Assembly (NCBI GenBank): GCA_963767985.1
Contig: CAVYGE010000006.1
Span: 128,169 to 192,168 of the forward strand
Length of the DNA stretch: 64,000 bases
DNA from: an uncultured Chloroflexia bacterium
Lineage (GTDB): Bacteria > Chloroflexota > Limnocylindria > QHBO01
Direction of reading: 5' to 3'
Part shown: piece by piece, positions 27,553-44,321 of the stretch
Layout: each line of letters opens with the position of its first letter
Position numbering within the stretch: the stretch's first letter is position 1
Translations under genes and position numbers: made by a program
The notes under the pieces: model-generated
Databases searched by the model: none
Told to the model about the DNA's origin: nothing
Seen by the model: only the letters and a program-made list of their open reading frames with translations

Positions 27553-27579
27553 CGAGTACCCCCGTCGTCTAGGCCCATC

Positions 27580-27603
27580 GGCCGAACCACTTCGGCCCGT
27601 TTG
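27580..27603 (+). terminator. intrinsic terminator candidate
   Basis: GGCCGAA-CCAC-TTCGGCC followed by CGTTTG, 28 nt after stop 27552. Confidence 0.5.
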
Positions 27604-27668
27604 CCCCATGTTCAGGGTGCAGGTCTGCCCGTAGCGTCGGCGCTCTCACACCATCACGGGAGAGCTCG

Positions 27669-29198
27669 ATGCGGTCGCGCATGCTTCGGATTCGAACCTC
27701 GGTCGGCATCCTCGCCGCTGCCATCGCGCTCCAGGGGCTGGCCCCGACCCTCGCCGAGCCCGGCGCCCACGCCGTCCTCGCCCAGGTCGCGGCCGCCGGC
27801 CCCGACACGTCGATCTCCGCAATGAGCGAGAGCGCGGCCGCCAAGGGTCGCGCTCCGAACCCGCAGCCCTCAAAGAAGCCACGCCCGACGCCAAAGCCGA
27901 CGCCCGCCCCGACGGCGCAGCCGCCAGCTCCCCCGACGCCGACGCCAACCGCAACGCCGACCCCCGCGCCGACGGGGAACCCCAGCCCCACGACGACTCC
28001 ACGCCCCTCTGCCACGGCGTCTCCGACGCCAGCGGCCAGCTCGACGCCGACCGCGGCACCGACGCCGACGGCTCCCGCCGGGCCGACGGTGCATGTCTAC
28101 GCGGGTGATCCGGTGCAGGCACGAATCGACGGGGCCGCGCCGGGCACGGTCTTCGCGCTTCACGCCGGCAGCTATTCGAAGCTGAAGCTTCGCTCCGGCA
28201 TCACGCTCCAGCCGGCCGGCGACGGTGAGGTCGTGATCAGCGGTGGAACGGGATCGTGGGACGCCGGTCTGTGGATCAAGGAGGTGTCGAATGTCACCAT
28301 TCGCGGCCTCACCGTGCGCGGCAACACCCTCGGGATCTTCCTGCGCGACGCACCCGGCGCCGTGATCGAGGACAACCTCATCACCGACAACGCGTTCGGG
28401 CTGGAGATCCACGCCTCCACGGCGGGTTCGGTGATCCGCAACAACCGCATCCACGACAACGACCGGTATCTCGATCCGGGCCGTAAGGCGGGCGGCATGA
28501 ACCTGTTCAACACGCACGGTGGAATCACCGTCGCGGGCAATTCGATCCTCAACAACGACTCCGTCGGCATCGAGATCTACGGTACGGACGATGCGCTGAT
28601 CACCCAGAACGTGATCGCCGGATCGAGCGATGCCATCGAGACGGGGACGGCCACCGGAGGCGACTGCAAGAACAACGTCATCAGCCGCAACGTCATCTAC
28701 GGGGCCGGCCATCGATCCGAAGAGCGCGGCATCTGGCTGCGCTGCCTGAGCAACTCGGTCGTGGCGCACAACACCATCTACGGCATGGACAAGTTCGGGA
28801 TCGGCGTCACGGCCTCGGGACAGTTCTCGGGTCCGATCACGAACCTGCGGATCCTGAACAACGCCATCGCCAACGGCCGGGCGTTCTGGCTCGGCAGCGG
28901 CCTGCCGTCGAGCATCGTCATCGACTACAACAATGCGTCCCCGTGCATCGCCTCGTCATGTCCGGCCTTTGGTCATCTCGTCGCGACCCTGGGAACGACG
29001 AACTACGCGTCGCTGACCGCATTCCAGGCGGGCACTCCCTACATGGACCACGGTCTGTCGGTCGACCCCTACATCCTCGATCCGGATGCGCGCGACTTCC
29101 GCCTCACGTGGTCGTCGCCGCTGGTGGACCGCGGCACGGACCTCGGATGGGGACATCTCGGGTCCGCGCCCGACATCGGCAGGCACGAGACGCGCTAG
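27669..29198 (+). CDS. secreted parallel beta-helix repeat (PbH1/NosD-like) protein with long Pro/Thr linker
   Basis: Signal peptide (MRSRMLRIRTSVGILAAAIALQGLAPTLA) and an ~80-aa P/T/A linker. Repeats follow: VTIRGLTVRGNTLGIFL, IEDNLITDNAFGLEI, IRNNRIHDND, VAGNSILNNDSVGIEI, ISRNVIYG, VAHNTIYG. Confidence 0.6.
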   Translation: MRSRMLRIRTSVGILAAAIALQGLAPTLAEPGAHAVLAQVAAAGPDTSISAMSESAAAKGRAPNPQPSKKPRPTPKPTPAPTAQPPAPPTPTPTATPTPAPTGNPSPTTTPRPSATASPTPAASSTPTAAPTPTAPAGPTVHVYAGDPVQARIDGAAPGTVFALHAGSYSKLKLRSGITLQPAGDGEVVISGGTGSWDAGLWIKEVSNVTIRGLTVRGNTLGIFLRDAPGAVIEDNLITDNAFGLEIHASTAGSVIRNNRIHDNDRYLDPGRKAGGMNLFNTHGGITVAGNSILNNDSVGIEIYGTDDALITQNVIAGSSDAIETGTATGGDCKNNVISRNVIYGAGHRSEERGIWLRCLSNSVVAHNTIYGMDKFGIGVTASGQFSGPITNLRILNNAIANGRAFWLGSGLPSSIVIDYNNASPCIASSCPAFGHLVATLGTTNYASLTAFQAGTPYMDHGLSVDPYILDPDARDFRLTWSSPLVDRGTDLGWGHLGSAPDIGRHETR

Positions 29199-29272
29199 CG
29201 GCCCGGGACGCGGACGCCGCAATGCCCTAGGCTGACGCCTCCGTTCGAAGGTCGTCAGTCCGGCGAGGTCAC

Positions 29273-30199
29273 GTGCGCAGCAATCAAGCTCAGGGCGGGG
29301 ATCCCCAGGTCCTCTTCATCGGCGGATCGGGCCGCAGCGGAAGCACGTTGCTCGATCGGATCATCGGCCAGCTGCCGGGGTACGTATCGGCCGGGGAGAT
29401 TCGCGATGTGTGGCGAGCGGGCGTCCGGGAGAATCGGCTGTGCGGCTGCGGTCGTCCTTTCTCCGACTGCGACTTCTGGACTCGGGTGGGGGAGACTGCC
29501 TTCGGCGGGTGGTCGAATGTCGACGTCGACGCCGCCGATCGATGGATGGGTTCGTACGGGTATCGCGATGCGCTGACCGGTGCCGATGCCGCAGCGCACG
29601 AGCAGCGCTCCGCACTGGTCCGGAGCCTCTATCGCGCAGTCTCCGATGCCGCGGACGGCGCGACCGTCGTGGATTCGTCGAAGTCACCGCCGTACGGCGC
29701 GATGCTCGCAACGACCCTGCCGGGATCGGTGCGGGCCATCCACCTGGTCCGGGACAGTCGGGGCGTGGCCTTCTCGTGGGGGAAGCACGTGAAGCGACCG
29801 GACACGCCAGGTCGGGACGTCGAGATGCATCGCCTCGGCCCGGTGCCGGTCGCAACGCGATGGGTCGTCCACAACCTGATCATGGAGGGACTCGGCAGGC
29901 GCGTGCCGTCAGCCCGCGCACGCTACGAGACGTTGATGGTGGAGCCGCGGCGCGAGATCGACCGCGTGATGGAACGCATCGGGGCGCCGGTCGGCCCCGA
30001 TGGGCTCGACTTCATCGCGGGCAGCCAGGCGCAACTCCGGCCCAATCACACGGTCATGGGAAATCCGATGAGGATGGCGGTCGGGCCGGTCGATCTGCGC
30101 CTGGACGATGCCTGGACGTCGAAGATGGCAACACGCGATCGGCTGACGGTCACGGCGATCACCTGGCCGATGCTGCTTCGCTACGGCTACCGACCCTGA
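29273..30199 (+). CDS. sulfotransferase family protein (Sulfotransfer_3-like), distinct from the other two
   Basis: GTG start. 5'-PSB-like FIGGSGRSGSTLL, 3'-PB-like HLVRDSRGVAFSW, and a Cys cluster CGCGRPFSDCDFW. TAGGCT box at 29228. Confidence 0.65.
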   Translation: MRSNQAQGGDPQVLFIGGSGRSGSTLLDRIIGQLPGYVSAGEIRDVWRAGVRENRLCGCGRPFSDCDFWTRVGETAFGGWSNVDVDAADRWMGSYGYRDALTGADAAAHEQRSALVRSLYRAVSDAADGATVVDSSKSPPYGAMLATTLPGSVRAIHLVRDSRGVAFSWGKHVKRPDTPGRDVEMHRLGPVPVATRWVVHNLIMEGLGRRVPSARARYETLMVEPRREIDRVMERIGAPVGPDGLDFIAGSQAQLRPNHTVMGNPMRMAVGPVDLRLDDAWTSKMATRDRLTVTAITWPMLLRYGYRP

Positions 30200-30203
30200 C
30201 GGA

Positions 30204-30965
30204 TCAGATTCCGGGGTCGTACTGGATGACCAGGCGCATCAGCAGGTGGGCGCCGAGCACACCCCACAGCGAGCCGGTGCGCCACGCCGCGGCCCCGAAC
30301 AGGATGCCGATGCCACCCATGGCGATGGCGATGGCCCCGGAGCCGGACCCGAGATACATGGCCGCATACAGGACGTTCGGGATCAGGATCCCGAGGTTGG
30401 GCGCCCGGACGAGCGCGACGTGCTGCAGCAGTCCGCGGAACGTGAGCTCCTCCAGGAAGACGACGAACAAGGGCACCACCAGGAGGAACATCGCGGCGTT
30501 CGGCTCGCCGCCGATGGCGAGGCTGGGCCCCATCGTCCCCCCCAGCAGGAGCCCGAGCGGCACTCCGGTCGCGGCGATCCCGACGGTGACCCATGGCTGT
30601 GCCGGCATCCCGAGGCCGAGAGACCGGACATCGAGACCGAGCGCCCGGGCGATGCCGATGACGCCGATGAGGGCGGGCGCCCCCACCAGGACGTAGGCCG
30701 CCAGCGGATCGAGGCCCCCGATGGGCATGACGAGGCTGAGGATGCGGATCAGCGGAACGACCATCAGGGCCGGGATCTGCGGGTCCTTGGGAACGCTGCT
30801 GAAGGCGTTGTGGCCCGCCAGCACGACGAGAAGCGAGGCATGGATCGCCGCCGCGGCGCCGGTCCCGACCAGCGCCAGCCCGATCTCGGCCGCGACCACC
30901 ACGCTTCCGTAGACGAGCAGCCAGTTCGGGACGGCCCTCGTGTGGCGATTGGCCGCGAGGCTCAT
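30204..30965 (-). CDS. CPBP-family intramembrane glutamic endopeptidase
   Basis: Motif 1 is FLEELTFRGLLQ (EExxxR). The later FGAAAWRTGSLWGVLGAHLLMR carries the conserved His. Multiple TM helices. Confidence 0.65.
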   Translation of the reverse strand: MSLAANRHTRAVPNWLLVYGSVVVAAEIGLALVGTGAAAAIHASLLVVLAGHNAFSSVPKDPQIPALMVVPLIRILSLVMPIGGLDPLAAYVLVGAPALIGVIGIARALGLDVRSLGLGMPAQPWVTVGIAATGVPLGLLLGGTMGPSLAIGGEPNAAMFLLVVPLFVVFLEELTFRGLLQHVALVRAPNLGILIPNVLYAAMYLGSGSGAIAIAMGGIGILFGAAAWRTGSLWGVLGAHLLMRLVIQYDPGI

Positions 30966-31219
30966 CAGGAGAGCAGGTCCAGGAAGCGGCGGAAGGTGAT
31001 GGTCGCCCAGGCGATCACCAGGGGAAATGCCATGGCCGTGAGGCCCGCCGCGCCGGCCTGGGCCCAGAGCGCGCGCCGGGTGCGCAGGCTCTCGCGCTGG
31101 AGCAAGACGGCTGCAAGTGTCACTATGGTGACCACTTCGGCGAACGCACGGAAGCCGCCGAGGGCGGCGCTCAGCTCGACGGTATAGATTCCAACAGTGG
31201 TGGTCATGGCACCGCCCAT
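30965..31219 (-). CDS. small membrane protein
   Basis: 84 aa, two to three hydrophobic helices. Its stop overlaps the CPBP start at 30965. Confidence 0.35.
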   Translation of the reverse strand: MGGAMTTTVGIYTVELSAALGGFRAFAEVVTIVTLAAVLLQRESLRTRRALWAQAGAAGLTAMAFPLVIAWATITFRRFLDLLS

Positions 31220-31237
31220 CCTATCGGTGACACGCGC

Positions 31238-33128
31238 GTGGTACGAATGAGACTTGACTCCCGCTCAGCCGTCCAACGGCCGGCGGGACCGCTGGGTGTC
31301 TGGGGACGGCTGGACGTCACCCGGGTCATTCCGTTCCCGCGATCGGTTCTGATCGCTGCGCTCGGAGCGGTGATCCTCATCGTCCTGGTGGGGTGGATCT
31401 GGACGGTTCGTGATCTCGATCCGCGGGCCCTCACCGACATCGGCCTCATCTCGATCCTGCCCGTGACCGCATACGGGCTGGTGGGTGTGCTGGCCGTGTC
31501 ATTCGTGCTGGCCCTGCGCATGGGGCGCCTCTCCGAGACGCTTCTCCTGGCGCACGTCCTGGGCCTGATCTTCATGCTGTATGGAGCGACATCGTTGTTC
31601 GAGGAGCTGCCGCGCTTCTTGACAGCCTGGCTCCACGTCGGGTTCGTCGAGAGCATCGCCCGTACCGGTGAGCTCCACCCGTTCCGCGACGCGCGATTCG
31701 ACTGGCCAGGGTTCTTCGTGCTGTTCGCCTTCCTGCAGAACGTGGCGCGCATGGACAGCCTGCTCCCGATCATCGCCTGGGTGCCGGTCGTGCTCGTGGC
31801 ACTCTACCTGCCGCCGCTGTACCTCATCTATCGGTCCGCGACGGCCGACCTGCGGCTCGTGTGGCTCGGGCTGTGGATCTTCGTGATGGTCAACTGGGTC
31901 GGGCAGGAGTATTTCTCGCCGCAGGGCATGAACATCCTTCTCTTCCTCACGATCGTCGCTGCCCTGGTCACGTGGTTCCGGGCCGACCCATCGCGCACCT
32001 CGAGGCTGTCGCAGCTCGTGGCGCGCATCCCGGGCATGCGCGGCCGTGAGCGCGTCCTGGTGGATCCGAACGCGGAAACCGAGGGCGGCCCCCGCGCCTG
32101 GGTGTCGGATCATCAGCAGATTGGCCTCGTGGCGATCATCACGCTGGTCTTCGGACTGTCGGTGGCAAGCCACCAGCTGACGCCGTTCGCACTGGTGGGC
32201 GCGCTCGTGCTCCTCGTGATGACGCGCCGGCTGACGCTGTGGGGCATCCCGATCATCATGATGGTGTTCCTCAGCGCGTGGCTCACCTTCATGGCGGCGA
32301 CGTTCCTGGAGGGCCACCTTGCCGGCCTGCTCGAGGACCTGGGACGCCCGGACCAGTTTGCCGCGTCGAACGTATCGGGTCGGCTCCAGGGCAGCCCCGG
32401 TCACCTGTGTGGCGCTCCAGGCCCGTCTCGCCTTCACGTTCCTCATCTGGATCGTCGCTCTCGTGGGCGGCGTCCGGCGGATCCGGGCAGGCCGGCTCGA
32501 TCTGACGCTTGCCATGCTTGCCATCGCACCGTTCGGCCTGATCCTGCTGCAGGGGTACGGGGGCGAGATGCTGCTGCGGATCTTCCTATTCGGGATCGCC
32601 TTCATGGCCTTCTTCGTCGCAGCGGCGCTGCTTCCGACCGAGCGGGCGATGTCGTGGAAGCTCAGCGGCGGCGTCGTGGTCGCGTCCGTCTTCCTGGCCT
32701 TCGGGTTCCTCTTCACGCACAACGGAAACGAGCGGTCGGACATCATCAGCGTGCGCGAATTCGAGGCACTCGAGTTCCTGACCGACACCGCAGCGGACGG
32801 CGACACGATCGCCCGCATCAACCACCAGGTCCCGGTCGGCTATCGCGAGTGGGAGCAGATGCGCGTGGTCTCGATCAACTCCGAGTTCATGGAACCGGAC
32901 ATGCAGGCCCTGACCGATGAGCTCCGCCTGCGAACCCGCGAAGGGCAGGACGCCTACATCATCGTGTCGCGCAGCAACGAGGCGTACGCCATCATGTTCC
33001 AGGGCATGACGCTCGACGCGTGGCATGAGCATCTCCGCCTCCTGCTGTCCGAGGTCGACCTCGAGGAGATCTACCGCAACGAAGACGCGGTGGTGTATCG
33101 CTGGCTGCAGACCGATCTCGAGACATGA
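31238..33128 (+). pseudogene. large polytopic membrane protein with C-terminal soluble domain (candidate GT-C-type glycosyltransferase or polymerase); apparent frameshift near 32395
   Basis: More than 12 hydrophobic helices spread over ORFs 31238..32920 and 32319..33128. An acidic DLD lies just after helix 1 (VRDLDPRALTD). A ~170-aa hydrophilic C-terminal domain follows. No family confidently recognised. Confidence 0.4.
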
Positions 33129-33535
33129 ACCGCGAGATCGGGCCCCGAATCGCCGTGGTCGTCGCGCTTGCCCTCGCCGCGAGCATCCACCTCCAGGAGT
33201 GGTCGTTTCCGTTCAGCCAATGGATCGTGGTCGGTGTGTTGCTCACGGTCCCGGGGTTCGTCGTGACGAGGCTGGCGGGAATCCGCGAGCCGATCGTCAC
33301 CGTGCTCCTGCTCGTGCCGGTGAGCCTGGCGGTCAACGGGTTGGTCGCGACCGCCGCGATCTATCTCGGGGTCTGGTCGACGGAGCTCATCTTGCTGGTC
33401 GTGATCGCCATCACGTTGGTCGCCTCCGCCCTCTCCTCCAATCGACGGAGCTCGCGCGGCGTGCTCCTGTCGCTGGCGCTCCTGCCCGGGCTGGTGCTGA
33501 TCGCCGCCGCGGCCTCCACGGCTGCCCCGAGTTGA
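33125..33535 (+). CDS. membrane protein
   Basis: 136 aa, four hydrophobic helices. ATGA overlap with the preceding gene. Confidence 0.4.
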   Translation: MNREIGPRIAVVVALALAASIHLQEWSFPFSQWIVVGVLLTVPGFVVTRLAGIREPIVTVLLLVPVSLAVNGLVATAAIYLGVWSTELILLVVIAITLVASALSSNRRSSRGVLLSLALLPGLVLIAAAASTAAPS

Positions 33536-33614
33536 CGGATCGCTGTTTTCCCCCGAGCCTTGTGCGTCGCACGGAACATCCGAAGCCCGCGACTGTCTAT
33601 GAGGGAGCCCATCC

Positions 33615-34785
33615 TTGACCCTGGACCAGGACGAATCACCAGCTGAATCCCGCGCGATCGGCGTGGCGCGAGTCGGGCAGACGGCCCTCGAGGCGCCGCG
33701 TCTCGGCGTCGGGACCGTCCCGCTCGGCAACATGCTCGGCGAGGTCGGCATCACCGTGGATGACGACGAGGCACGGGCCATCGTCGAGACGGCGCATCGG
33801 CTCGGCGCCCGACTGGTCGACACCGCCCCCCAGTACGGGACGGGCCTCGCCGAGCGACGCGTCGGAACCGCACTGGCCGAGCTGCCTCGCGACGAGCTGA
33901 TCATCTCGACGAAGGTCGGCCGGCTCCTGCGTCCGGTGACCACGCTCCAGAAGGTCGCCGGTGTGCTTCGCCAGACCGTCTCGGGGCCCGAGCGTGGCCC
34001 GGCCCTCCTTGGACGTCACATCGCGCGCGCAGCTCGCCGGCTCGCCGGAAAGGATCCGGCCTACGGCCTTGGATTCCCGTTCGACCGCGGCGACGAGCGC
34101 TCGCTGGAGGCGTACTTCGACTTCAGCTACGACGGTGTCATGCGTTCGGTGGAAGGCAGTTTCGAGCGGCTCGGCGTTGACCGGCTGGACATGCTCTTCA
34201 TCCACGACCCCGATGATCACTATGAGGAGGCCCTCTCGGGCGCCTTCAAGGCTCTCGACCGGCTTGCGCGCCGAAGGCTCCGTCACCGCGATCGGCGTCG
34301 GCATGAACCAATCCGAGATGCTCACCCGCTTTGCCACGGATGCAGCCTTCGACTGCTTCCTGCTGGCCGGCAAGTACTCGCTCTTGAACCAGGCCGGGCT
34401 CGAGGACCTGCTGCCGGCGGCAGCCGAGCGTGGCATGACGGTCAACATCGGTGGGGTCTTCAACAGCGGGTTGCTGGCCGACCCCCGTCCGGGCGTCGCG
34501 TTCGACTACCACGCGGTCGGGTCGAACTCGGAGCCGCTGCGCCGCGCCCTTCGGCTCAAGGACGTCTGCGATCGGCACGGAGTCCCGTTGGCCGCGGCAG
34601 CGGTGCAGTTCCCGCTGGGCCATCCGGCCGTAGGGACCGTGCTCGTCGGCGTGCGCTCGGCCGCGGAGCTGACCGAGAACGTCCAGCACTTCACCCACCC
34701 GATTCCGCTCGACCTCTGGAAGGAGCTGCGGCATGAGGGGCTCGTGCCGGGTCACGTTCCGCTGCCGGGGCTCCCGCCCGCCTGA
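33615..34785 (+). pseudogene. aldo/keto reductase, apparent frameshift near 34265
   Basis: LGVGTVPLG, VDTAPQYGTGLAERRVG, IISTKVG, LDMLFIHDPD. The next frame continues as GSVTAIGVGMNQ..., VFNSGLLA, VLVGVRSAAELTENV. Confidence 0.7.
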
Positions 34786-34823
34786 CGTGGTGCGTGCTGG
34801 CACCCTGTGGCCGCCGAACGTAC

Positions 34824-34852
34824 TGGACGGAATCGGGACGTCCGTGTAGGCT
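34824..34852 (+). promoter_or_regulatory. candidate promoter TGGACG-N17-TAGGCT upstream of the CWB2 gene
   Basis: Hexamers have 17-nt spacing. A strong SD (AAAGGGGG) lies 5 nt before GTG 34905. Confidence 0.25.
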
Positions 34853-34904
34853 GCGCCGGAATTCGATCTCATCCTCACCAGAGCCTGTCCACAAAGGGGG
34901 AACA

Positions 34905-36687
34905 GTGTCGACGCTGCATCCACACGCCCATTCGCGTCGCCGTAGCGGCGTGGCCGCACTGGCCGTCGCGACGCTGGTCGCATCAGTATCCATCTCGATG
35001 TTCGCCGTGCCGCCCGTTCAGGCGGCGGCAAGCGATGTGTCGCGCCAGAGCGGTGCCAACCGCTTCGCGACCGCAGCCGATATCTCGAAGAAGACCTTCG
35101 CGCCCGGCGTGGGCGTGGTGTACGTCGCCAACGGCATCGAGGGCATCCCGGACGCGCTCGCCGCGGGACCCGCCGCTGCCAAGCTCGGCGGACCGACCCT
35201 GCTGGTCACGAAGACCAGCATCCCGTCCGAGACGCGCGTCGAGATTGACCGGCTGAACCCGGCCAAGATCGTCGTCGTGGGCGGCACCGGAGTTGTGTCG
35301 TCGGCCGTTCAGTCGGCCCTGGCACCCTACGCCGGTGGCGGGGGCGTTTCGCGCCAGAGCGGTGCCAACCGCTTCGCCACCGCAGCCGATATCTCCAAGA
35401 AGACCTTCGCGCCCGGCGTGGGCGTGGTGTACGTCGCCAACGGCATCGAGGGCATCCCGGACGCGCTCGCCGCGGGACCCGCCGCTGCCAAGCTCGGCGG
35501 ACCGACCCTGCTGGTCACGAAGACCAGCATCCCGTCCGAGACGCGCGTCGAGATTGACCGGCTGAACCCGGCCAAGATCGTCGTCGTGGGCGGCACCGGA
35601 GTTGTGTCGTCGGCCGTCCAGTCGGCCCTGGCACCCTACGCCGGTGGCGGGGGCGTTTCGCGCCAGAGCGGTGCCAACCGCTTCGCCACCGCAGCCGATA
35701 TCTCCAAGAAGACCTTCGCGCCCGGCGTGGGCGTGGTGTACGTCGCCAACGGCATCGAGGGCATCCCGGACGCGCTCGCCGCGGGACCCGCCGCTGCCAA
35801 GCGCGGCGGACCGACCCTGCTGGTCACGAAGACCAGCATCCCGGCCGAGACGCGCGTCGAGCTCGACCGACTGAACCCGGCCAAGATCGTCGTGGTCGGC
35901 GGCACGGGCGTGGTGTCGAGCTCGGTCCAGAACGCACTGGTGCCGTACATCGTGACTCCGACGCCAACTCCCACGCCGACTCCGACGCCAACTCCGACAC
36001 CGACCCCGGCGCCAGGCGTCTCGGCGCCGTTCGTGCGCAACTTCAACGGCGGGGAGGGCGAGACTCCTCGACGCCGGCTTCGACGGACTGATGACCGGCG
36101 CGACGCTGGATGGTGACGTGCATCTTTCGGGCGGCGGCTCGTCAATCCGACGGTTGCCGAGGGGGACGCATTCAATGGAGGAAATGACCAGAAGGACGCG
36201 CTCCTGGTGGACATGACCGTTCCCGCGGGCAACTTCACCGTCCACGGCGTGGTGTGCTCGCCGTACCCGCCACGAGGAGTTCGCTTCGGCTGGGGATCTT
36301 CTTCGGCACGGGCGACCAGGACAACTACGTCAAGGCGGTCGTCAGCTGGAGCCCGGACCTCGATACGACCCAGGTGCACGATACCCGGGAGGTCGGCGGG
36401 GACGGTTTCGGGATCGCCGACAAGGCGGATGCGAACATCCTGTCCGATCCGTGCCTCGACCTGTACCTCACGGTGAACAAGGCAGCGATGACGTACGCAC
36501 CGGCGTACTCGTTGGACGGCGGCAGCACGAAGATCGGCTTCGGCGGCGTTTGCGGCGGCTGCGCACGATCCCGGCCTCGTGGCTGGATGGCTCGAACCCG
36601 CTCGCCATCGGCGTCATCGCGACGTCGCAGGGACCGGCCGCACCGTTCAGCGCCTCGTGGGATCTCCTCGAGGTGACCATTCCGTAG
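34905..36687 (+). pseudogene. surface protein: signal peptide, 3 x cell-wall-binding repeat 2 (CWB2), (PT)n linker, C-terminal concanavalin-A-like lectin domain; C-terminal third has at least 4 frameshifts
   Basis: Signal peptide (VAALAVATLVASVSISMFAVPPVQA). Three 103-aa repeats: RQSGANRFATAADISKKTF...ALAAGPAAAKLGGPTLLVTK...IVVVGGTGVVS. TPTPTPTPTPTPTPTPTPAP linker. The lectin-like tail is spread over several frames (..GDQDNYVKAVVSWSP.., ..AYSLDGGSTKIGFGG.., ..LAIGVIATSQGPAAPFSASWDLLEV). Confidence 0.7.
35036..35962 (+). repeat. three tandem 309-bp repeats, near-identical at nucleotide level
   Basis: The anchor string cgcgccagag recurs at 35041, 35350 and 35659 (period 309). Only scattered substitutions separate the copies. 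In frame, one unit equals one CWB2 module. Confidence 0.9.
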
Positions 36688-36694
36688 GCTGCGT

Positions 36695-36724
36695 GACCCT
36701 CGGACGCGTCGCCGTCCGAGGGTC
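36695..36724 (+). terminator. perfect 12-bp hairpin 8 nt after stop 36687
   Basis: GACCCTCGGACG-CGTCGC-CGTCCGAGGGTC. No U-tract (I-shaped type). Confidence 0.45.
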
Positions 36725-36861
36725 GTCTACCACGCCGATCGCTTGATGGGTCGGCGGCGAGCCGTCTGGTATCGTTCGGCGAGGACGGTCGATGGTCGGG
36801 GCCGGGTGGCTGGACGCGGCGACCTGCCTCAACCCATATCCTCGCCCAGGATCGACAACGT

Positions 36862-38155
36862 ATGCCCGAGCATCTCCATCCCGGCCTGCGAGGAGCTGGT
36901 CCGGCGTTTCGAAGCCGCATCGGTCCGCTGGGCGTTGCTGCGGCTCCCCGCCGACCTCCTTCGTCCGCGGCGGGGATATCGACCTGCTCGTGCATCCGGA
37001 GGACCGGTCGCTGGCGCGACGAGGCATGCATCGACCTTGGATTCGTTCGCATCGCCGCGTCCGGCGCGAGTACGCCCTACGTGCTCTACCACCGATCGAC
37101 GGGGACGTGGCTGCACTCGATCTCGCCTCGAGCCCGCTTCCGGATGGTTGGGCGGTACGGTGATCTCGCCGCGAGCGGCGCCGGCACGGGTCCTCGCGCG
37201 TTCGATCGCCGAGGACGGAATTCGACGCCTGCACCGCGACGACGAATTCTGGGGGCTAATGCTTCATCTCGCCGATGGCGCCCGCCAGGTCGCCCGATCG
37301 TCACTGGGCAACCCTGCGCAGCAACGCGGAGTTCGCAACGATGATGTCCGCCATCGTCCAGGCCGTTCGATCGCAGCGACCCGACGCCCCGGTCGTTCTC
37401 GAGCGCGCACGTGCGGCCGTGCTGGCGAACGATCACGTCCTGCATTCGCGACACTCCTGGGCGAGCTCGCGACCATGGCGGGCACCCGGAGCTGGATCCG
37501 CAACCTGCCGCGCCTCGTTTCGCGGCCGTGGCGGGCGTGGCATCATCGAGGTCTGAGCGTTGCCCTCCTCGGGCCGGATGGTGCCGGGAAATCCTCCCTG
37601 GCCCAGTGCCTGGTGGGTCGGTCGTTCTTTCCGACGAGCGTCGTGTACATGGGGACCGGCATCCCGGGCGACGTCATGGCGCGCCCCGCCGCGCTGCGCT
37701 GGATGCGGGGCCCGGTGCTGTTTCCGATCGGAGGCACACTCGTCCAGTGGGACCGGTACCTTCGCGCCCTTGGCGAAAGGGTGCGCGGGAAGATGATCAT
37801 CTTCGATCGCTATACCGAGGAAGCACTCCTGCCCCCACCCGACTCCGATCCGAGCTGGAAACGGCTCACACGTGGCGTTCGACGCGCGTTGGCGTGCCCC
37901 ACGCCGCAGATCACCATCGTCCTCGACGCTCCGGGAAGCGTGATGTTCGACCGCAAGGGCGAGCATGACGGCCCGTGGCTGGAGGCTCAGCGGCACCGCT
38001 ACCGCGCTCTGGCCGAGCACCTCCCCGGTGCGGTGATCATCGATGCCGAGCAGCCGCGCGATGCCGTCTGCGCGGAGGCCATGGCCGCGATCTGGGCCGC
38101 GTTCGCGGGTCGGCATGAGCGCCGCCGCAGCCAGATGGAGCGAGCCACCGGATGA
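36862..38155 (+). pseudogene. nucleotidyltransferase-like N-domain (GGDIDLLV type) fused to P-loop thymidylate-kinase-like domain; at least 6 frameshifts in the first 600 nt
   Basis: Fragments in alternating frames: CEELVRRFEAASVRWALLRLP / RGGDIDLLVHPEDRSLA / IDLGFVRIAASGASTPYVLYHRSTGTWLH / VISPRAAPARVLARSIAEDGIRRLHRDDEFWGLMLH / HWATLRSNAEFATMMSAIVQAV. An intact tail follows with the P-loop LLGPDGAGKSSLAQ. Confidence 0.4.
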
Positions 38156-39000
38156 AGACCGCGGCGCCATTTGGGCGGCTCAACGGTGGAGGGAGCACCA
38201 CTCCGGATGTGGTGAGCAGGCCCGTGCGACGCGTCTACATCCTGGGAGGAGAGGGCAGCGGCAAGACAACCCTCGCGCAGCGGATCCATGACACGCTCGG
38301 CCTGAGCGTGCATCAGCTCGACTATGTCGCCTGGCGCGGTGCGGAAGAAGGAACGGTGCCGCTGTTCGACCCCCGCTACCAGCCGCCGACCCGCCTCATC
38401 CCGCGCCCCGTCGAGGAGCGGCTGGCCCTCATCGAGGAGATCGCGGCCACAGAATCGTGGGTCGCCGAGGGGAAGCATCTGTGGTGGACCGAGGGTCTGC
38501 TGCGGCAGGCGGATCTCGTCGTGTGGCTCGACCATGTTCCATTCCCACGAGCGGCCTCACGCGTCATGCGGCGCGCGGCGCGCAGCGGCGGGCGGAGCTT
38601 CCGCAGCCATCGAGGGCGTCGGAAGTTCACGCGGTTCCGTGACTACGCACGCCATGGACGGTCTCTCTTCCGGCAGCTCCGCAACCTTCTGCTGTACTAC
38701 GTCGCACCGCTGTCGTCGAAGCCGCCGGATCTCACGGACTACTGGCCCATCGTCACCCGATCGGCCACCCAGGAGTTCCTCCGGCCCTATGCCGTCAAGG
38801 TCGTGAGCATCAAGCACACGTCCGAGCTCGACACGTTGATCGCGGCATTGAGCGATTCCGTCGACGCACCTGCTCCGTCGAGGCGGAACGCTAGCAGTCG
38901 TCAGGCCGCGCGCGGCGCGGCCTTCGGTGGCATGGCCGACTCGAACACCGGCTTGGCGACGAAGGCGGCCTGGATGGTCACGGCGATGAGCCATCCGTAG
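38152..39000 (+). CDS. P-loop NTPase/kinase (adenylate-kinase / FlaR-like)
   Basis: ATGA overlap with the previous gene. P-loop VYILGGEGSGKTTLAQRI. The 3' ~100 nt overlap the convergent flippase pseudogene, so the true end is uncertain. Confidence 0.45.
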   Translation: MKTAAPFGRLNGGGSTTPDVVSRPVRRVYILGGEGSGKTTLAQRIHDTLGLSVHQLDYVAWRGAEEGTVPLFDPRYQPPTRLIPRPVEERLALIEEIAATESWVAEGKHLWWTEGLLRQADLVVWLDHVPFPRAASRVMRRAARSGGRSFRSHRGRRKFTRFRDYARHGRSLFRQLRNLLLYYVAPLSSKPPDLTDYWPIVTRSATQEFLRPYAVKVVSIKHTSELDTLIAALSDSVDAPAPSRRNASSRQAARGAAFGGMADSNTGLATKAAWMVTAMSHP

Positions 39001-40197
39001 GCCAGGCCCTCCAGTCCGCCCATGACGGCACCGACCGAGGACAGTCCGACTTCGAGCCCAGCGCCCACCCAGCCGAAGAGCGCGGCCTTGCCCAGTCCGC
39101 TTCGAATGCGCTGGATCGCCACCCAGTGATCCTTGATGAGCAGCGGGAAGCCACGCACGGCCAGGATCGCGATGGCGGGATAGGCGGAGTCCGCGTAGGC
39201 GCTCCCGAAGACGGACAGCACGAGCTGGCCGGCCAGGAGAAAGACCAGGCTGCCGCCGATCGCGGAAGCAGCCGACATGGCCATGGTCACGCGGACCTGC
39301 TTCCACAGCTGGTCAGGATCCTTGGCGCCGACGGCGAACAGCGTCAGCGTGGCGGACTGTCCCGACGAGACTGACGTAGTTCGACAGCAGAAGGGCGATG
39401 TAGAACGCTGCGTTGTCGGCCCGGGTCAGGATGACCGGGACGATGATCGGGAGCATCGATGCCGGAGCGAAGCGGGAGACGTTCAGCAGGTGGTGCATCA
39501 GGGCCTTGCGCGCCAGGCCGAAGAACTTGTCCCAGACCAGCGGACGCCAGCCGTTGTCGAGACCGCGATGGCGGATGTACCACGCCATGTAGACGAGCGA
39601 CAGCAGGATGCCGAACTGCCACGCGACGTAGATCGCCATCCCCTCGTTCCCGAGCCACAGGCCGGCCAGGACGAGGATCACCAGCTTTGCCATCGAGAAG
39701 ATCACGTTCCGAATCAGCTGGAGGGCACTGCGGAAGAGCCCGACCAGCACCTGGTCCAAGCACGGCGGTTGCAGCCGTCAGGCTCACGCCGACCGCGAAG
39801 ATGAAGATGCGGAGCGGGTCGCTGCCGATCGGTGCAAGGTCGCTGAACAGCGACGGTGCAAGAGCGGCAAAGACGATCCCCATCGCGCCGCCGATGGCAA
39901 CGGTTGCGGTCAGCGACGTCAGGATCAGCCTGCGCCGGCCGCGGCTCATCGTCGGCAGTTCACCGAGGAGCGTCGTGCCCAGGCCGACCAGCGCGATCCT
40001 TCCCAGGAACAGCATGGCGGAGATGGCCGATGCCGCGATTCCCGACGGCGTCCGGCGAGAACGCCCGCGCAGCGGCGTACCAGAAGAGGAAGCCCGACCG
40101 CTCCGTTGAGGAGCGAGACGGCGATGAGCGAGCCGGTCATCTTCATGACCGCGCTACTCTTCGGCAGCCTGGACATCAGCCGCCGGGCGAAGGTCAC
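38901..40197 (-). pseudogene. second MOP/Wzx-like flippase, paralog of 17558..18898; at least 3 frameshifts
   Basis: Four ORF fragments (39946..40197, 39344..40015, 39313..39759, 38901..39290) align colinearly with the first flippase. For example, LMHHLLNVSRFAPASMLPIIVPVILTRADNAAFYIALLLSNYVS matches LSHHLLNLTRSSSVWLLPILVTALLSRDANAAFYVALLLANFVS. An extra g near 39349 breaks ..VGT|SATLTLFAVGAKDPDQLW. Confidence 0.6.
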
Positions 40198-41121
40198 CTA
40201 TCCGGCGACCTCGGCGCGATCCACCTGGGACGCGATCCAGGAGTCGAGATTCCAGCCGGTGATCTGCGCCAGTTCCCGGACCTCGTCGGCCACGTCGGCC
40301 TCGAGTCGCGCGCGCAGCTGGTCGTCCATGGGCGGGCGTTGGTCCTTGCGGCTGTTCATGGCGACGAGCGATCCGCGAAGCCGATGCAGGATGGGCGCCC
40401 GCCGCAGAAGCGGAATCAGCCGATCGAGGGGAAACGGTGGCCGAACCAGGAGGTCCTGGACAGGCCGCTCTTCGGCTGCTTCGTCTCGTTGACGCGCTCG
40501 AAGGACGGAACGAACGTGGTGTCCGCGCCGATGAACGCGAGGATGTCGAGGTAGACCGCCCTCGGATCGGACCGCAGGTCGTCGTAGTTCACGAGTTTGA
40601 CCTGCTCGGCGTGGGAAGGTGTCGAGATAGCGCCGGACCTGGTCCGGGAAGCGCACGGCGTTGCGGTAGCAGAGGGTCTCGACGCGTCGCACCCCCCTGG
40701 GCACACGGCGTCCGGCGAGTCGATCCGGCTCGGCCGCGAGCGCCGCGGCGAAATCACGGATCGTTTCGGCCCGGTAGAAGACCATCTCGCGGTGGAGCGA
40801 GTGCATGACGTCCACCGGACTGCGCAGCATGATGACGATGCGTGCGTCGGGATTCGCCTCCTTGATCTCGCCAGCGGCCAACCGCGAATAGAGCGACCAG
40901 GTGGAGGCCTCGCCGATGAGCTGGCCCGGCAGAGCGGCCGCAAACAGACGCTCGTACTCCGTGCGCGTCAGGCGGCCGTGCCGATGGTGGAGATCTGCGC
41001 CGAAGTAGTTCGGCTCCTTGTGCTCTGGCATGTAGATGCCGGGATGCTGCTTCAGGTAGTCGTACATCGCGGTCGTCCCGCAGCGTGGCGCGCCGACGAT
41101 GAGAAAGTCCGGAAGGGTCAA
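40198..41121 (-). pseudogene. second PAPS-dependent carbohydrate sulfotransferase, paralog of 16620..17561; two frameshifts (~40614, ~40460)
   Basis: LPDFLIVGAPRCGTTAMYDYL (5'-PSB) and MLRSPVDVMHS (3'-PB). The middle segment is in ORF 40416..40943 (HAEQVKLVNYDDLRSDPRAVYLDILAFIGADTTFVPSFERVNETKQP). Confidence 0.65.
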
Positions 41122-41192: not shown

Positions 41193-44100
41193 GTGTCGGC
41201 TGTGTCCTGCCACGACCGGGGAATCATCCGCTTGTCCTCATCTGCCCAGCGTCGGAGTCTCGTCCGACGATTTGCGCTCATTCTCGCGACATTCGCCCTG
41301 CTCGCGTCGGGGTTGCCGGCGCTGGTGCCCGTCGTGTCGGGTGTCTCGGAGATCGCCTTTGCGCCGGTCGCCGACGCTTGGGTGGATCAAGGCACCCCGA
41401 CGGCGAACGCGGGAGCCGGCCCCGATCTGCAGGTGGACGGCGATAGCGGCGGAGGCATGGACTACCAGTCCTTCCTGCGGTTCGACGTCAGCGGCGTCAC
41501 GGGCACGATCCAGGGGGTGAGCCTCCGGTTCAGCGTTCTCAACGGCACGGTCGACGGGCCGGCCGTGTATCAGACGGCCAGCACGTGGACCGAGTCGACG
41601 GTGAACTGGCAGAGCCGGCCGGCGATCACTACGGCGGCCATCGACGACCTCGGCCGAATCACGACCGGACAGACGATCAACTACAACGTCACCTCCACGG
41701 TAACGGGCAACGGGACGTACTCCTTCGGGCTCGTGAGCACGTCGGCGGATGGGCTCGATGTCTCCTCACGTGAGGGCGTGACACCGCCCCAGCTGATCCT
41801 GACGGTCGCCCCCGCATCGACGGACCTGACCTTCGGCTCGACCGCCGACGCGTACGTCGACGAGGGGAACTTCTCCCAGAACTACGGGTCAGCGTCGACG
41901 CTCGAGGTCGACGCGGATCGCGGGTTCGGCTACGACCGGGAGGCGTACCTGAAGTTCGATGTCACCGGACTGGGCGGTCCGGCGCAGGCAGCGACCGTCC
42001 GCCTCTACGTGACGAACGGGACCGCGAATGGGCCGAAGATCTCGAGCGTGGGGACGAGTTGGGGCGAGTCCACGATCACCTGGGCGAATCGCCCGGTCGT
42101 GACGAGCGGAGTCCTGGACGATCGGGGAACGATCGCGGCGTCCACCTACGTGGACTTCAACGTGACCTCGGCCATCTCGGGCAATGGCACCTTCGCATTC
42201 GCCCTGAAACCGGACTCGAACGACGGACTCGACGTGTACTCGCGCGAGGGCGGGATACCTCCAAGGCTGATCATCACCCCGTCGACCACGTCGACGCCGA
42301 CGCCCACGGCCACGATCCCATCGGCCACTCCGACACCGACCGCGACCGTCACGCCAACCCCTACCGCGACCGCGACGCCGACGCCGACCGCGACGCCGAC
42401 GCCGACGCCGACGCCGGGATCGGGTGACCCGGTTCTCGTCGGCGCCGGGGACATCGGCGTGTGTGGCAGCCCGTACGACGAGGCGACCGCCGACCTCCTC
42501 GACGGTATCGCCGGCACGGTCTTCACGGTGGGCGACAACGTCTACCCGAATGGGACGGCCGACGAGTTCGCGAACTGCTACGACCCGAGCTGGGGCAGGC
42601 ACAAGTCACGGACCCGGCCCACGCCGGGCAACCACGACTACAACACATCGGATGCGGCGCCGTACTACGCGTACTTCGGCGCTTCTGCCGGTGATCCCAC
42701 CAAGGGGTACTACAGCTACGACGTACCGAACTGGCACGTCGTCGTCCTGAACTCCGAGTGCGCCAGAATCGGCGGCTGCGGTCCTGGCTCGCCGCAGGAG
42801 ACCTGGCTGCGGGCGGATCTTGCGGCCAGCCCGACGAACAACATCCTGGCAATGATCCACCATCCGCGATTCACCTCCGGTCTCAGGGGGAACTACGTGA
42901 TCTCAGACGCCCTGTGGACGGCCCTGTACGAATTCGGTGCGGACGTCGTTCTGAGCGGACATGAGCACTTCTACGAGCGCTTCGCGCCGCAGAGCCCTGC
43001 CGGAGTCGCCGATCCGGCGTACGGCATTCGCGAGTTCATCGTGGGGACCGGCGGCGCCTCTCTGAGTGGCGCCGGCGCTCCGGCGCCGAACAGCCAGGTG
43101 CTGAACGCTTCAAGCTACGGCGTTCTGAAGCTCACCCTCCACCCGAGCGCGTACAGCTGGCAGTTCGTGCCGATCGCCGGTCAGACATTCACGGACTCGG
43201 GCACTGCCGCCACGCATCCCGCTCCGGTGATCGCCACGACCAGCGTGACGGCAGGCGCGGATGCAACCGTGGACCAGTCGCTGCCATCGCAGAACTTCGG
43301 CTCGGCGCTGGACCTCCTCGTCGACGGTGACACCGGGGCGGGACTTGACGATGAGAGCTACCTGCGGTTCACGGTGTCCGGGACGAGCGGCACCGTCAGC
43401 AGGGCGCTGCTGCGCGTCTGGGTCACGAACGGGACCGGCAACGGACCGAAGGTTCACCGCGTCACCGGTGCGTGGACGGAGTCCGCGATCACATGGGCAA
43501 ACCGCCCGCCCCCCGTCGGCTCCGTCCTCGATGATCTCGGGGCTGTGCCCGCCGGTGCCTTCGTGGACTTCGACGTGACATCCGCGGTCACGGGCAACGG
43601 GGACTACAGCTTCGTGCTGATGCCGACCAGCAGTGACGGCCTGGACGCCATGTCGCGCGAGGCCGCGACGCCGCCCCGGCTCCTGGTCACCACGGTCGGC
43701 GGGTCTCCCAGCCCGACGCCCAGCCCGACGCCCACCGCCACCGTGACACCGACGCCCACCGCCACCGTGACACCGACGCCGACTGCCACACCGACGCAGA
43801 CCGCCACACCAACGCCCACCGTGACCCCAACGCCCACCCCGACGCCGACGCCCACCACCGGCTTCGTCATGGGCATCGACTTCAACGGCTCCGGTGGTTC
43901 GATCGGCGGACGAACCTGGCAGTCCTACGCCAGCGCGCTTGCCTCGGGCTTGAGCGTGTCCGCCTCCACGACGACATCGTCACGAACGCCGGTGCCGGCG
44001 GTCGATGCGGCAACGGCCGCGATGCTCAACTCGGCGATCTGGCAGCCGCGTGGTGACCTGGTCATGTCGCAGACGCTGTCGAATGGGTCATACCAGGTGT

Positions 44101-44321
44101 ACCTGTGGGTGATGGAGAACCATAAGACGAACTTCCGCTCGTTCGGCGTGAAGCTCGAGGGATCGACGGTCGCGACTGGCATCGGCACCATGCCGCTGTC
44201 GTCCTGGCAGCGCTACGGTCCGTACTCGGCGACCGTTGCGGATGGACGCCTCGACGTCGTCCTGGTCGACGGCCAGGCGGCCCCGCACATCATGGGGCTC
44301 GAGATCCACAACGCACCATGA
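41193..44321 (+). CDS. large secreted multidomain protein: 3 x DNRLRE-type beta-sandwich domains, calcineurin-like metallophosphoesterase, C-terminal malectin-like domain
   Basis: 1042 aa and intact. Signal peptide (RRFALILATFALLASGLPALVPVVSG). Three copies of the pattern ADA[WY]VD..L.VD...SFLRFDV.G...V.LR..V.NGT..GP......W.ES..TW..RP. The metallophosphoesterase motifs are GDIGVCG, GDNVYPNG, GNHDY, HHP and GHEHFYERF. Two PT linkers. C-terminal GIDFNGSGG...YQVYLWVMENH...GLEIHN. The start may be TTG 41232. Confidence 0.7.
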   Translation: MSAVSCHDRGIIRLSSSAQRRSLVRRFALILATFALLASGLPALVPVVSGVSEIAFAPVADAWVDQGTPTANAGAGPDLQVDGDSGGGMDYQSFLRFDVSGVTGTIQGVSLRFSVLNGTVDGPAVYQTASTWTESTVNWQSRPAITTAAIDDLGRITTGQTINYNVTSTVTGNGTYSFGLVSTSADGLDVSSREGVTPPQLILTVAPASTDLTFGSTADAYVDEGNFSQNYGSASTLEVDADRGFGYDREAYLKFDVTGLGGPAQAATVRLYVTNGTANGPKISSVGTSWGESTITWANRPVVTSGVLDDRGTIAASTYVDFNVTSAISGNGTFAFALKPDSNDGLDVYSREGGIPPRLIITPSTTSTPTPTATIPSATPTPTATVTPTPTATATPTPTATPTPTPTPGSGDPVLVGAGDIGVCGSPYDEATADLLDGIAGTVFTVGDNVYPNGTADEFANCYDPSWGRHKSRTRPTPGNHDYNTSDAAPYYAYFGASAGDPTKGYYSYDVPNWHVVVLNSECARIGGCGPGSPQETWLRADLAASPTNNILAMIHHPRFTSGLRGNYVISDALWTALYEFGADVVLSGHEHFYERFAPQSPAGVADPAYGIREFIVGTGGASLSGAGAPAPNSQVLNASSYGVLKLTLHPSAYSWQFVPIAGQTFTDSGTAATHPAPVIATTSVTAGADATVDQSLPSQNFGSALDLLVDGDTGAGLDDESYLRFTVSGTSGTVSRALLRVWVTNGTGNGPKVHRVTGAWTESAITWANRPPPVGSVLDDLGAVPAGAFVDFDVTSAVTGNGDYSFVLMPTSSDGLDAMSREAATPPRLLVTTVGGSPSPTPSPTPTATVTPTPTATVTPTPTATPTQTATPTPTVTPTPTPTPTPTTGFVMGIDFNGSGGSIGGRTWQSYASALASGLSVSASTTTSSRTPVPAVDAATAAMLNSAIWQPRGDLVMSQTLSNGSYQVYLWVMENHKTNFRSFGVKLEGSTVATGIGTMPLSSWQRYGPYSATVADGRLDVVLVDGQAAPHIMGLEIHNAP
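42281..42417 (+). repeat. low-complexity ACSCCSAC repeat encoding a Thr/Pro/Ala linker
   Basis: STTSTPTPTATIPSATPTPTATVTPTPTATATPTPTATPTPTPTP. Confidence 0.6.
43707..43859 (+). repeat. low-complexity Thr/Pro linker repeat with a 24-nt direct duplication
   Basis: acgcccaccgccaccgtgacaccg occurs twice in tandem. The region encodes SPTPSPTPTATVTPTPTATVTPTPTATPTQTATPTPTVTPTPTPTPTPTT. Confidence 0.6.

Follow-up and report, generated by a model that had tools for sequence, protein, structure and literature searches.

A probable CWB2 surface-protein gene with near-identical repeats and a broken reading frame in an envelope-glycan neighbourhood of a Chloroflexota genome

Layout of the gene and family of its modules

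The stretch of DNA analysed here (the window: 64,000 nucleotides of contig CAVYGE010000006.1 from an uncultured Chloroflexia bacterium, with a G+C content of ~68-70%) carries a gene that probably encodes a secreted surface protein, anchored non-covalently to the cell wall of a Limnocylindria-type member of the Chloroflexota represented by a metagenome-assembled genome (MAG), with homogenised repeats and a broken reading frame. This single plus-strand gene is bounded by the stop codon of a gene for an aldo-keto reductase (AKR), at 34785, and by a hairpin at 36695-36724. It comprises a probable signal peptide, three CWB2-type modules of 103 amino acids, a Thr-Pro linker and a C-terminal domain that is predicted to be concanavalin-A-like (ConA-like). 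An earlier note on this DNA, made from the sequence alone, had described a strong Shine-Dalgarno sequence, three 103-aa modules encoded by 309-bp units and a (PT)9 linker. All three are found, the first as AAAGGGGGA closely ahead of the GTG start codon and the last as (TP)9 (Table 1). Counted from that GTG, the N-terminus corresponds in aligned length to those of the orthologs P0006 and L005 gene 1.

Membership of the CWB2 family, which the earlier note had assigned, is as firm as computation allows because a profile hidden Markov model (HMM), sequence alignment to known structures and a predicted trefoil all agree. The translation matches the Pfam family PF04122 (CW_binding_2) in three stretches with an E-value of 1.1e-56 and 189.7 bits, compared to a gathering score of 24.9, and the orthologs L005 gene 1 and L007 match the same family. 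The 309-aa triplet aligns end to end with Clostridioides difficile Cwp6 (5j72, E 6e-32) and Cwp8 (5j6q, E 1e-27), as well as with SlpA high-molecular-weight (HMW) chains. An AlphaFold model of the triplet, built from 21 aligned triplets, reached a predicted local distance difference test score (pLDDT) of 97.6 and a predicted TM-score (pTM) of 0.92. With this model as a Foldseek query, 5j72_A was matched with a query-normalised TM-score (TMq) of 0.90 and a root-mean-square deviation (rmsd) of 2.1 Å over 310 columns, followed by 5j6q (0.87), 7acy_B (0.86) and SlpA HMW chains (0.83-0.86); no unrelated fold scored near Cwp6. In silico, the three modules are predicted to adopt a toprim-like fold and to pack as a trefoil pseudo-trimer of the Cwp6/Cwp8 type.

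Expression signals around the gene are less distinct than the earlier note had suggested. The promoter-like box described there was not recovered, as a scan for sigma-70-like promoters returned none, although Chloroflexota promoters may differ from the sigma-70 consensus. The proposed 12-bp terminator hairpin exists as a perfect GC-rich stem eight nucleotides past the stop codon; it is followed by no T-tract, the terminator scan makes no call and its sequence is not conserved downstream of the orthologs. It is possibly a tail-less terminator. Given the hairpin and an upstream gap of 119 nt, a monocistronic unit is plausible. Rfam and tRNA scans of the window gave no matches.

Table 1. Features of the CWB2 gene and its surroundings (window coordinates).
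Feature	Position	Strand	Remarks
HddA-like GHMP kinase/sulfotransferase fusion	15518-18898	+	1126 aa; kinase at residues 39-252, sulfotransferase at 376-571
Sulfotransferase	29273-30199	+	Pfam
Rce1-like	30204-31220	-	Pfam
X607	31238-33128	+	one frameshift near 32391
X152 membrane protein	33125-33535	+	conserved neighbourhood
Aldo-keto reductase (AKR)	33615-34785	+	Pfam; one frameshift near 34262
Shine-Dalgarno-like sequence AAAGGGGGA	34893-34901	+	4 nt before GTG 34905; read from sequence
Open reading frame (ORF) as sequenced	34905-36116	+	403 codons; TGA 36114-36116 after 18 out-of-frame codons (36060-36113)
Probable Sec-type signal peptide	34905-35024	+	RRR n-region, hydrophobic core GVAALAVATLVASVSISMFAV, VQA↓A cleavage motif
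CWB2 module 1 (309-bp unit 1)	35034-35342	+	PF04122 stretch, unit comparison, alignment to Cwp6 5j72
CWB2 module 2 (unit 2)	35343-35651	+	unit comparison
CWB2 module 3 (unit 3)	35652-35960	+	unit comparison
(Thr-Pro)9 linker	35955-36008	+	translation
C-terminal domain, predicted ConA-like beta-sandwich	36009-36687	+	no Pfam family; six frame pieces; stop TAG 36685-36687
C-terminal pieces 1-3	36009-36059 (frame 0), 36064-36138 (+1), 36138-36269 (0)	+	exact coordinates
C-terminal pieces 4-6	36271-36294 (+1), 36296-36559 (+2), 36559-36684 (+1)	+	exact coordinates
Five frameshifts	about 36060-63 (+1), 36136-38 (-1), 36270 (+1), 36295 (+1, G4 run), 36557-59 (-1)	+	
Hairpin, perfect 12-bp GC-rich stem, 6-nt loop	36695-36724	+	8 nt past stop; -30 kcal/mol, z -3.2
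Region after the gene (~750 nt)	36688-37441		no convincing coding signal
Membrane protein	38953-40106	-	uses three frames; one frameshift near 39370
Downstream sulfotransferase	40198-41121		two shifts needed to restore the Pfam match
CBM96/metallophosphoesterase protein	41193-44321	+	1042 aa; CBM96 E 3e-93
AcrB/AcrD/AcrF-type transporters	44520-47927 and 48406-51543	+	E 8e-155 and 4e-210

Near-identical 309-bp repeats

Tandem Repeats Finder reports one high-scoring tandem repeat within the window, an array at 35040-35918 in which 2.8 copies of a 309-bp period match at 97% and contain no indels. Six nucleotide differences separate units 1 and 2, whose encoded proteins are identical save for the first residue. 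Units 2 and 3 are identical over their first 151 nt and then show 31 differences, most of them within the last 100 nt. Differences limited to a handful of substitutions, as described earlier, are thus found between units 1 and 2 and in the 5' half of unit 3, while the rest of unit 3 is more divergent. Overall, pairwise identity among the window modules is 94-100% in protein and 91-99% in DNA, compared to 75-84% DNA identity among the units of one gene in the orthologs and 62-74% between window units and any ortholog unit. Traces of positional orthology are visible between L005 gene 1 and L002 (82% for r1-r1, 79% for r2-r2 and 80% for r3-r3). In most close homologs, protein identity between modules is higher within a gene than between genes.

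The differences between the window units form a mosaic, in which the 3' part of unit 1 is nearly the same as that of unit 2 and the 5' part of unit 2 equals that of unit 3. Because this mosaic fits one 309-bp duplication or conversion tract that is offset by half a unit, we infer that the near-identity arose recently, by unequal crossover or gene conversion within the gene. Duplication of the 3' part of unit 1 plus the 5' part of unit 3 would then have given rise to unit 2. The recent duplication or gene conversion suggested earlier agrees with the identity values within and between genes. A second case is P0024 (L083 8219-9110, OY969424.1), a different CWB2 protein with GSDH and PKD passenger domains, whose three 300-bp CWB2 units share 99% DNA and 99-100% protein identity. 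Near-identical triplets, and with them such homogenisation, therefore recur in the clade, and the recombination that probably produced them is likely to do so as well.

Units of 309 bp with 97-99% identity are a classic hazard in short-read assembly, and the earlier note had pointed out a risk of assembly collapse. Nevertheless, it is very improbable that the repeats are an assembly artefact, whether by collapse or expansion of the copy number or by homogenisation of the units during polishing. The 927-bp array is far below the span of long reads and lies on a source contig of 931,794 bp; it stays in frame throughout, and its three modules match both the three-module orthologs and the structural requirement of the trefoil for three (PMC4973711). 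The mosaic is of the kind left by a single 309-bp duplication or conversion, and P0024 provides an independent example in a closed related MAG. Three CWB2 modules are also present in L005 genes 1 and 2, L002/P0009, P0010 and P0006. The positional ortholog L007 (3059-4822), encoded in a short-read Limnocylindria MAG, contains only two CWB2 modules, as suggested by tblastn and confirmed by Pfam, and a Big_9/cadherin-like module (Pfam), followed by a ConA-like domain; its two-module form is either a real variant or a short-read repeat collapse. The presence of near-identical modules within one trefoil is the main biological curiosity of the gene and amounts to a natural experiment on the need for asymmetric CWB2 modules.

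The C-terminal domain

Three-frame translations of the region after the linker reveal a domain of 225 amino acids that is spelled jointly by three frames, no single frame being open throughout. A search with the stitched domain retrieved only five proteins at E<=1e-3 (best match 55% identity, E 1e-70), with homologs being 35-55% identical. With the full-length query, intact proteins that share this architecture are found, P0009 (561 aa; 54% identity at 92% coverage) and P0010, along with others (P0006-P0008, P0011-P0013) that have a Big_9/cadherin-like module in addition and represent a sister architecture. The linker of the orthologs (PPDTDGDGIND...) differs from the (TP)9 of the window. A profile search with the domain yielded 1241 representative clusters at 50% identity, 342 of which score at E<=1e-30. 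Members occur in Bacteroidota, Planctomycetota, Actinomycetota, Chloroflexota and haloarchaea, most of them embedded in giant extracellular proteins of 1,000-7,500 amino acids. Since its partners in Bacteroidota, Planctomycetota, Thermoleophilia and one haloarchaeon are malectin, Kelch and Ig modules and tails of the type IX secretion system (T9SS), the domain fits an extracellular glycan-binding module.

Pfam gives no match to the domain at E<=10 apart from one to PelB, which was dismissed as chance, and NCBIfam returns nothing usable. Neither phmmer nor a profile search detects a sequence match in the PDB. The fold was approached through structure prediction on the C-terminus of the homolog P0001 (61% identical), using an alignment of 16 sequences. 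The resulting model is all-beta (pLDDT 85.9, pTM 0.87) and has 263 PDB matches in Foldseek at E<=1e-3. The top matches are the C-terminal beta-sandwich of glycoside hydrolase family 43 (GH43) beta-xylosidases (E 1.6e-8, TMq ~0.6), followed by GH16 glucanases and legume lectins, including soybean agglutinin (2sba); the structural matches have TMq values of 0.59-0.66 and are 11-21% identical in sequence. The homolog is thus predicted in silico to have a concanavalin-A-like two-sheet beta-sandwich (jelly-roll) fold. The concanavalin-A-like domain named in the earlier note is retained as the predicted fold of a homolog, not as a hit of any family HMM, and the label 'lectin' stands for carbohydrate binding that this modelled fold suggests. 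The analysis also brings to attention a widespread extracellular domain, predicted to be ConA-like, that has no Pfam family.

A broken reading frame within a cluster of frameshifts

As sequenced, the lectin-like domain is untranslatable. It is broken by five ±1 indels, compared to the at least four reported previously, which were located by three-frame translation and by tblastn of intact homologs against the window and result in the frame path 0>1>0>1>2>1. Orthologs are intact over the conserved domains (P0009, P0010, L005 6713-8530 and L007 3059-4822), unlike the window gene. Once corrected, the window domain keeps 43 of the 47 highly conserved columns, the same as the intact homologs. Programmed frameshifting or phase variation was rejected as an explanation, because the five shifts differ in sign and a G4 run is present at only one of them. 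Viterbi tracking of the frame by third-position G+C (GC3) and codon usage reproduces the path of the gene but also flips inside intact ORFs, and is used as a pointer only.

The gene is indeed broken. Its shifts are not particular to it, which the earlier note had not recognised: together with those of the neighbouring genes, at least 11 frameshifts are clustered within ~9 kb (32391-41121). The X607 homolog shifts near 32391, whereas L005 has X607 in one frame. AKR is split by an inserted G, such that Pfam profile positions 2-127 lie in one frame and 127-286 in another. Further downstream, the minus-strand membrane protein and a second sulfotransferase are also shifted (Table 1). The label 'flippase' that had been given to the stitched membrane protein (38.95-40.1 kb) was dropped because Pfam does not support it. 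No frameshift was detected in ~45 kb of flanks, where the intact genes include those for CysDN, the heptose enzymes, the glycosyltransferases, both beta-helix proteins, sulfotransferase 1, Rce1, the 1042-aa CBM96 protein, two pumps of the resistance-nodulation-division (RND) type of more than 1000 amino acids and CysS. The source annotation holds no protein for the AKR or CWB2 fragments, while the intact neighbours have proteins. Similarly, the product of the ORF as sequenced is absent from the protein collection in an exact look-up with five in-frame starts, whereas the products of its neighbours are present. The missing annotation is compatible with pseudogene flagging and leaves the cause of the frameshifts undecided.

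Between real decay and long-read consensus error, the evidence is about evenly balanced. We give an even chance to the explanation that the frameshifts arose as assembly or consensus errors in a long-read MAG, where the island varies between strains; the living cell would then have an intact protein of ~590 amino acids. The size of the source contig suggests a long-read assembly, and the damage consists of indels only, with no nonsense codon in the corrected frames and with the highly conserved columns retained. Variability of the island is apparent from two comparisons. Window positions 28.5-32.3 kb align to Logan short-read contigs of a relative with ~89% identity, in which the ORFs are intact; these contigs (L084-L087, from four samples, aligned to 25316-32301) end between 31027 and 32301, three of them at 31989-32301. 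The position of these ends, shortly ahead of the first frameshift, suggests a boundary that is hypervariable. In addition, L001 (1-4000) and L005 (4353-8350), which share ~99% identity over 12 kb, drop to ~90% with ~40 indels across X607-X152-AKR and CWB2 gene 1. Between these two, codon differences in AKR are 85 synonymous and 12 non-synonymous, so that selection has acted on the L001 allele even though it appears to be frameshifted; for CWB2 gene 1, the counts are 34 and 33, plus one stop. The CysS gene of L006 (2527-3683, minus strand; long-read MAG MFD02840.bin.2.48) is split over three frames, hence not even essential genes are free of frameshift errors in assemblies from this clade. Consensus errors would, however, have to be confined to 9 kb and leave the flanks untouched. 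Moreover, the three near-identical repeats, which are the hardest part to assemble, are clean, and only one of the seven inspected sites lies in a homopolymer of at least four bases (a G4 run), which counts in favour of real decay.

A chance just short of even is left for a genuine recent pseudogene in a decaying glycan island. A truncated product, consisting of the signal peptide, three CWB2 modules, the linker and an 18-aa out-of-frame tail, may then still be made and occupy wall-binding sites. No shift lies 5' of 36060-63, for which we calculate a chance of ~(650/1780)^5 = 0.006 under uniform placement; confinement of the shifts to the 3' part would follow from selection acting on the only part that is still translated. 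Clustering of the frameshifts in neighbouring island genes and the lack of annotated proteins for the CWB2 and AKR fragments point the same way. So does the nearest relative in the databases, which has no close homolog (best hit 62% identical for the full-length query and 55% for the lectin-like domain) although its flanks are ~89% identical in DNA. On the other hand, nonsense mutations are absent and conserved residues are not lost in excess. Five indels accompanied by so few substitutions make an unusual spectrum for natural decay, and where the frame of the neighbouring membrane-protein gene shifts in the window, a close relative keeps that gene in a single frame. Whatever the cause, the break in the reading frame falls in a part of the assembly whose integrity is doubtful, and the locus illustrates how a frameshift cluster in a MAG can mimic pseudogenisation. 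The gene is otherwise a fairly ordinary surface-protein gene, which may be decaying or mis-assembled.

Genomic neighbourhood

At least three related Chloroflexota genomes share the placement of the CWB2 gene in an envelope-glycan neighbourhood. The order sulfotransferase-Rce1-X607-X152-AKR-CWB2 is kept in L005, in L007 and in a 10-kb contig of P0009 from the Joint Genome Institute (JGI). The window gene is the positional ortholog of the intact genes, and the neighbourhood is conserved at ~54% protein identity. In L005 (OY969424.1, a 2.09-Mb single-contig 'chromosome' MAG), the order reads beta-helix, sulfotransferase, Rce1-like, X607, X152, AKR, CWB2 gene 1 (605 aa, intact) and CWB2 gene 2 (699 aa), followed by DAO (FAD-dependent oxidoreductase), AsnB, Wzy, a flippase and a glycosyltransferase (GT). 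Genes for Wzy, a flippase and a GT lie downstream in both L001 and L005. This conserved placement argues more strongly for a functional link than what the earlier note had at its disposal.

The sulfation and heptose-type glycan genes that the earlier note saw around the CWB2 gene are present. Further upstream, the window encodes CysN and CysD, both above subfamily cut-offs, for the synthesis of 3'-phosphoadenosine 5'-phosphosulfate (PAPS), together with GmhA-, GmhB/HddC- and HddA-like enzymes that all score below equivalog cut-offs. Three to four sulfotransferases, GT2 and GT4 glycosyltransferases and sugar epimerases are also encoded, and within the heptose/PAPS set an HddA-like GHMP kinase is fused to a sulfotransferase in one protein. 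It is a fair reading of these gene contents that the locus may make a sulfated, heptose-containing glycan.

With regard to the host, the CysS of the window is 83% identical to proteins of Chloroflexota MAGs, and among genomes with the C-terminal domain, the closest are MAGs of Candidatus Limnocylindria and of 'uncultured Chloroflexia'. An exact look-up of the window CysS returned no record. A scan of genome contigs with the reconstructed protein found no relative, and relatives were found when the scan was repeated with alignment A2.

Two further observations concern the genes beyond the frameshifted island. Right after it lies a gene for a 1042-aa protein with three CBM96 modules and a calcineurin-like metallophosphoesterase. 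It is followed by two tandem full-length RND transporters of the AcrB/AcrD/AcrF type (Table 1).

Function and candidate ligand

By homology with C. difficile, the protein would be exported, after which its CWB2 trefoil would dock non-covalently on a secondary cell-wall polymer. The Thr-Pro linker would space this anchor from the C-terminal module. The latter, an acidic module (net -19) presumed to be ConA-like and facing outward, may bind carbohydrate, judging from its fold and from its domain partners elsewhere.

Several points weigh against the gene being a wall-anchored surface protein of this kind. The n-, h- and c-regions of the signal peptide and its cleavage motif were recognised in the translation by eye alone. 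CWB2 modules each have a conserved P[ILV][ILV][LV] ('PILL') motif that is required for trefoil formation (PMC4973711, PMC5842191). At the corresponding position, aligned to APILLA of Cwp6, all three window modules read G-P-T-L-L-V, with Thr in place of the first aliphatic residue; this PTLL variant is shared with P0016 and P0018. The ConA-like fold was predicted from a 61%-identical homolog and not from the window sequence, which is itself broken, and no curated lectin, LamG or glucanase family matches the domain in Pfam and PDB sequence searches. The downstream context is not conserved either: the relatives have a second CWB2 paralog and DAO, whereas the window has P-loop genes after ~750 nt that lack a convincing coding signal, and a search for remnants of the paralog or DAO in 36.7-38.3 kb gave no credible match. 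Finally, if the frameshifts are real, the protein described here is not made in the organism. Even so, a secreted and non-covalently anchored surface protein remains the probable reading, in view of the family assignment and the modelled trefoil.

What the trefoil would bind is less certain. The earlier note proposed a matched pair, an analogy in which the triplet would bind the sulfated heptose-containing glycan of its own locus and the lectin domain would read or display this polymer. The conserved place of the gene in a glycan locus, which parallels the cwp genes and the anionic polymer (AP) of C. difficile, makes a relationship to this ligand plausible. The locus encodes enzymes for sulfation, heptose-pathway-like enzymes and glycosyltransferases, and in L005, L007 and the P0009 contig, the CWB2 gene is likewise adjacent to glycan genes and one for a sulfotransferase. 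The C. difficile cwp cluster borders on the locus for the anionic polysaccharide PSII (AP), with cwp19 inside it (PMC4973711, PMC5842191). The triplet of the window (35037-35954) is basic (net +10, isoelectric point (pI) 9.9), as would suit an anionic ligand. However, the triplets of the syntenic orthologs are strongly acidic (-13 for P0009 and -16 for P0010, pI ~4.2), which makes it less likely that triplets and a sulfated polymer are generally paired by matching charge, and other close homologs (L004, L006) are found in unrelated contexts. For these two reasons above all, we consider binding of the sulfated heptoglycan unlikely. CWB2 proteins are also numerous, with at least three in OY969424.1 alone, such that a common ligand need not come from this locus, and the heptose enzymes score below their equivalog cut-offs.

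A possibility to be taken seriously, if somewhat below an even chance, is that the ligand of the triplet is a component common to the wall, be it peptidoglycan or a polymer produced elsewhere, and that the position of the gene reflects historical linkage without any relation to the ligand. CWB2 proteins with many different passenger domains occur across genomes and contexts. Among 115 homologous triplets, the net charge ranges from -16 to +27, which suggests recognition independent of bulk charge. Synteny that is kept across relatives with orthologs of only ~54% protein identity speaks against mere historical linkage, as does the co-location precedent in C. difficile (PMC4973711).

At the far end of speculation, the triplets of the clade, homogenised by ongoing recombination, might serve as three-fold-symmetric anchors, in contrast to the asymmetric triplets of C. 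difficile, for a PAPS-dependent sulfated, heptose-containing wall polymer, which we regard as a long shot. If this were true, a new chemical class of secondary cell-wall polymer would be added as a CWB2 receptor. If the link between triplet and locus glycan holds more simply, anchoring through CWB2 and wall polymers would extend from Firmicutes to soil Chloroflexota, with a sulfated polymer as the receptor.

Comparison with known systems

The closest parallel is offered by the Cwp proteins of C. difficile. Triple CWB2 modules anchor these proteins to PSII, as the earlier note stated and the literature agrees (PMC4973711). Like Cwp6, Cwp8, the SlpA HMW chains and Cwp19, the window protein has three tandem PF04122 modules and, by prediction, a toprim-fold trefoil. 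It is also modular in the same way, with the anchor at one end and a passenger at the other, and its gene is similarly placed at or within a locus for a wall glycopolymer, comparable to the cwp cluster at the AP/PSII locus and to cwp19 inside it (PMC4973711, PMC5842191). There are also differences. The host belongs to the Chloroflexota and not to the Firmicutes, the motif reads PTLL, the passenger is a Pfam-less domain with a predicted ConA-like fold, and the gene is frameshifted in the assembly. While the polymer in C. difficile is phosphodiester-linked, the candidate ligand here would be sulfated. A further contrast lies in module identity: the modules of a C. difficile triplet are ~27% identical and experimentally not interchangeable (PMC4973711), as opposed to 94-100% identity in the window and 99-100% in P0024.

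The S-layer homology (SLH) proteins of Bacillus anthracis and Paenibacillus alvei follow the same three-repeat anchor logic. There, a pseudo-trimer of three repeats binds a peptidoglycan-linked polymer non-covalently (PMC6081394). Their fold and family are unrelated to those of CWB2, and general Pfam scans of the window genes turned up neither an SLH domain nor a CsaB-type pyruvyl transferase as found in systems with a pyruvylated polymer.

With ConA-like modules such as the GH43 C-terminal domain, GH16 enzymes and legume lectins, the C-terminal domain shares a predicted two-sheet beta-sandwich and an extracellular, carbohydrate-related setting. Unlike these, it belongs to no curated sequence family, is no more than 11-21% identical to them and has no assignable catalytic or sugar-binding residues.

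The repeats behave like those of other surface-protein genes under intragenic concerted evolution, with units closer within a gene than between orthologs and with a mosaic pattern of identity. The arrangement of modules also varies as in such systems, the L007 ortholog having two CWB2 modules and a Big_9 module. In contrast to surface-protein repeats whose copy number varies freely, the count is structurally constrained here to three by the trefoil; as the trefoil needs three modules, homogenisation must preserve their number. CWB2 wall proteins as such are known. What is added is a member in an under-studied phylum, with a Pfam-less passenger of predicted ConA-like fold and unusually homogenised modules.

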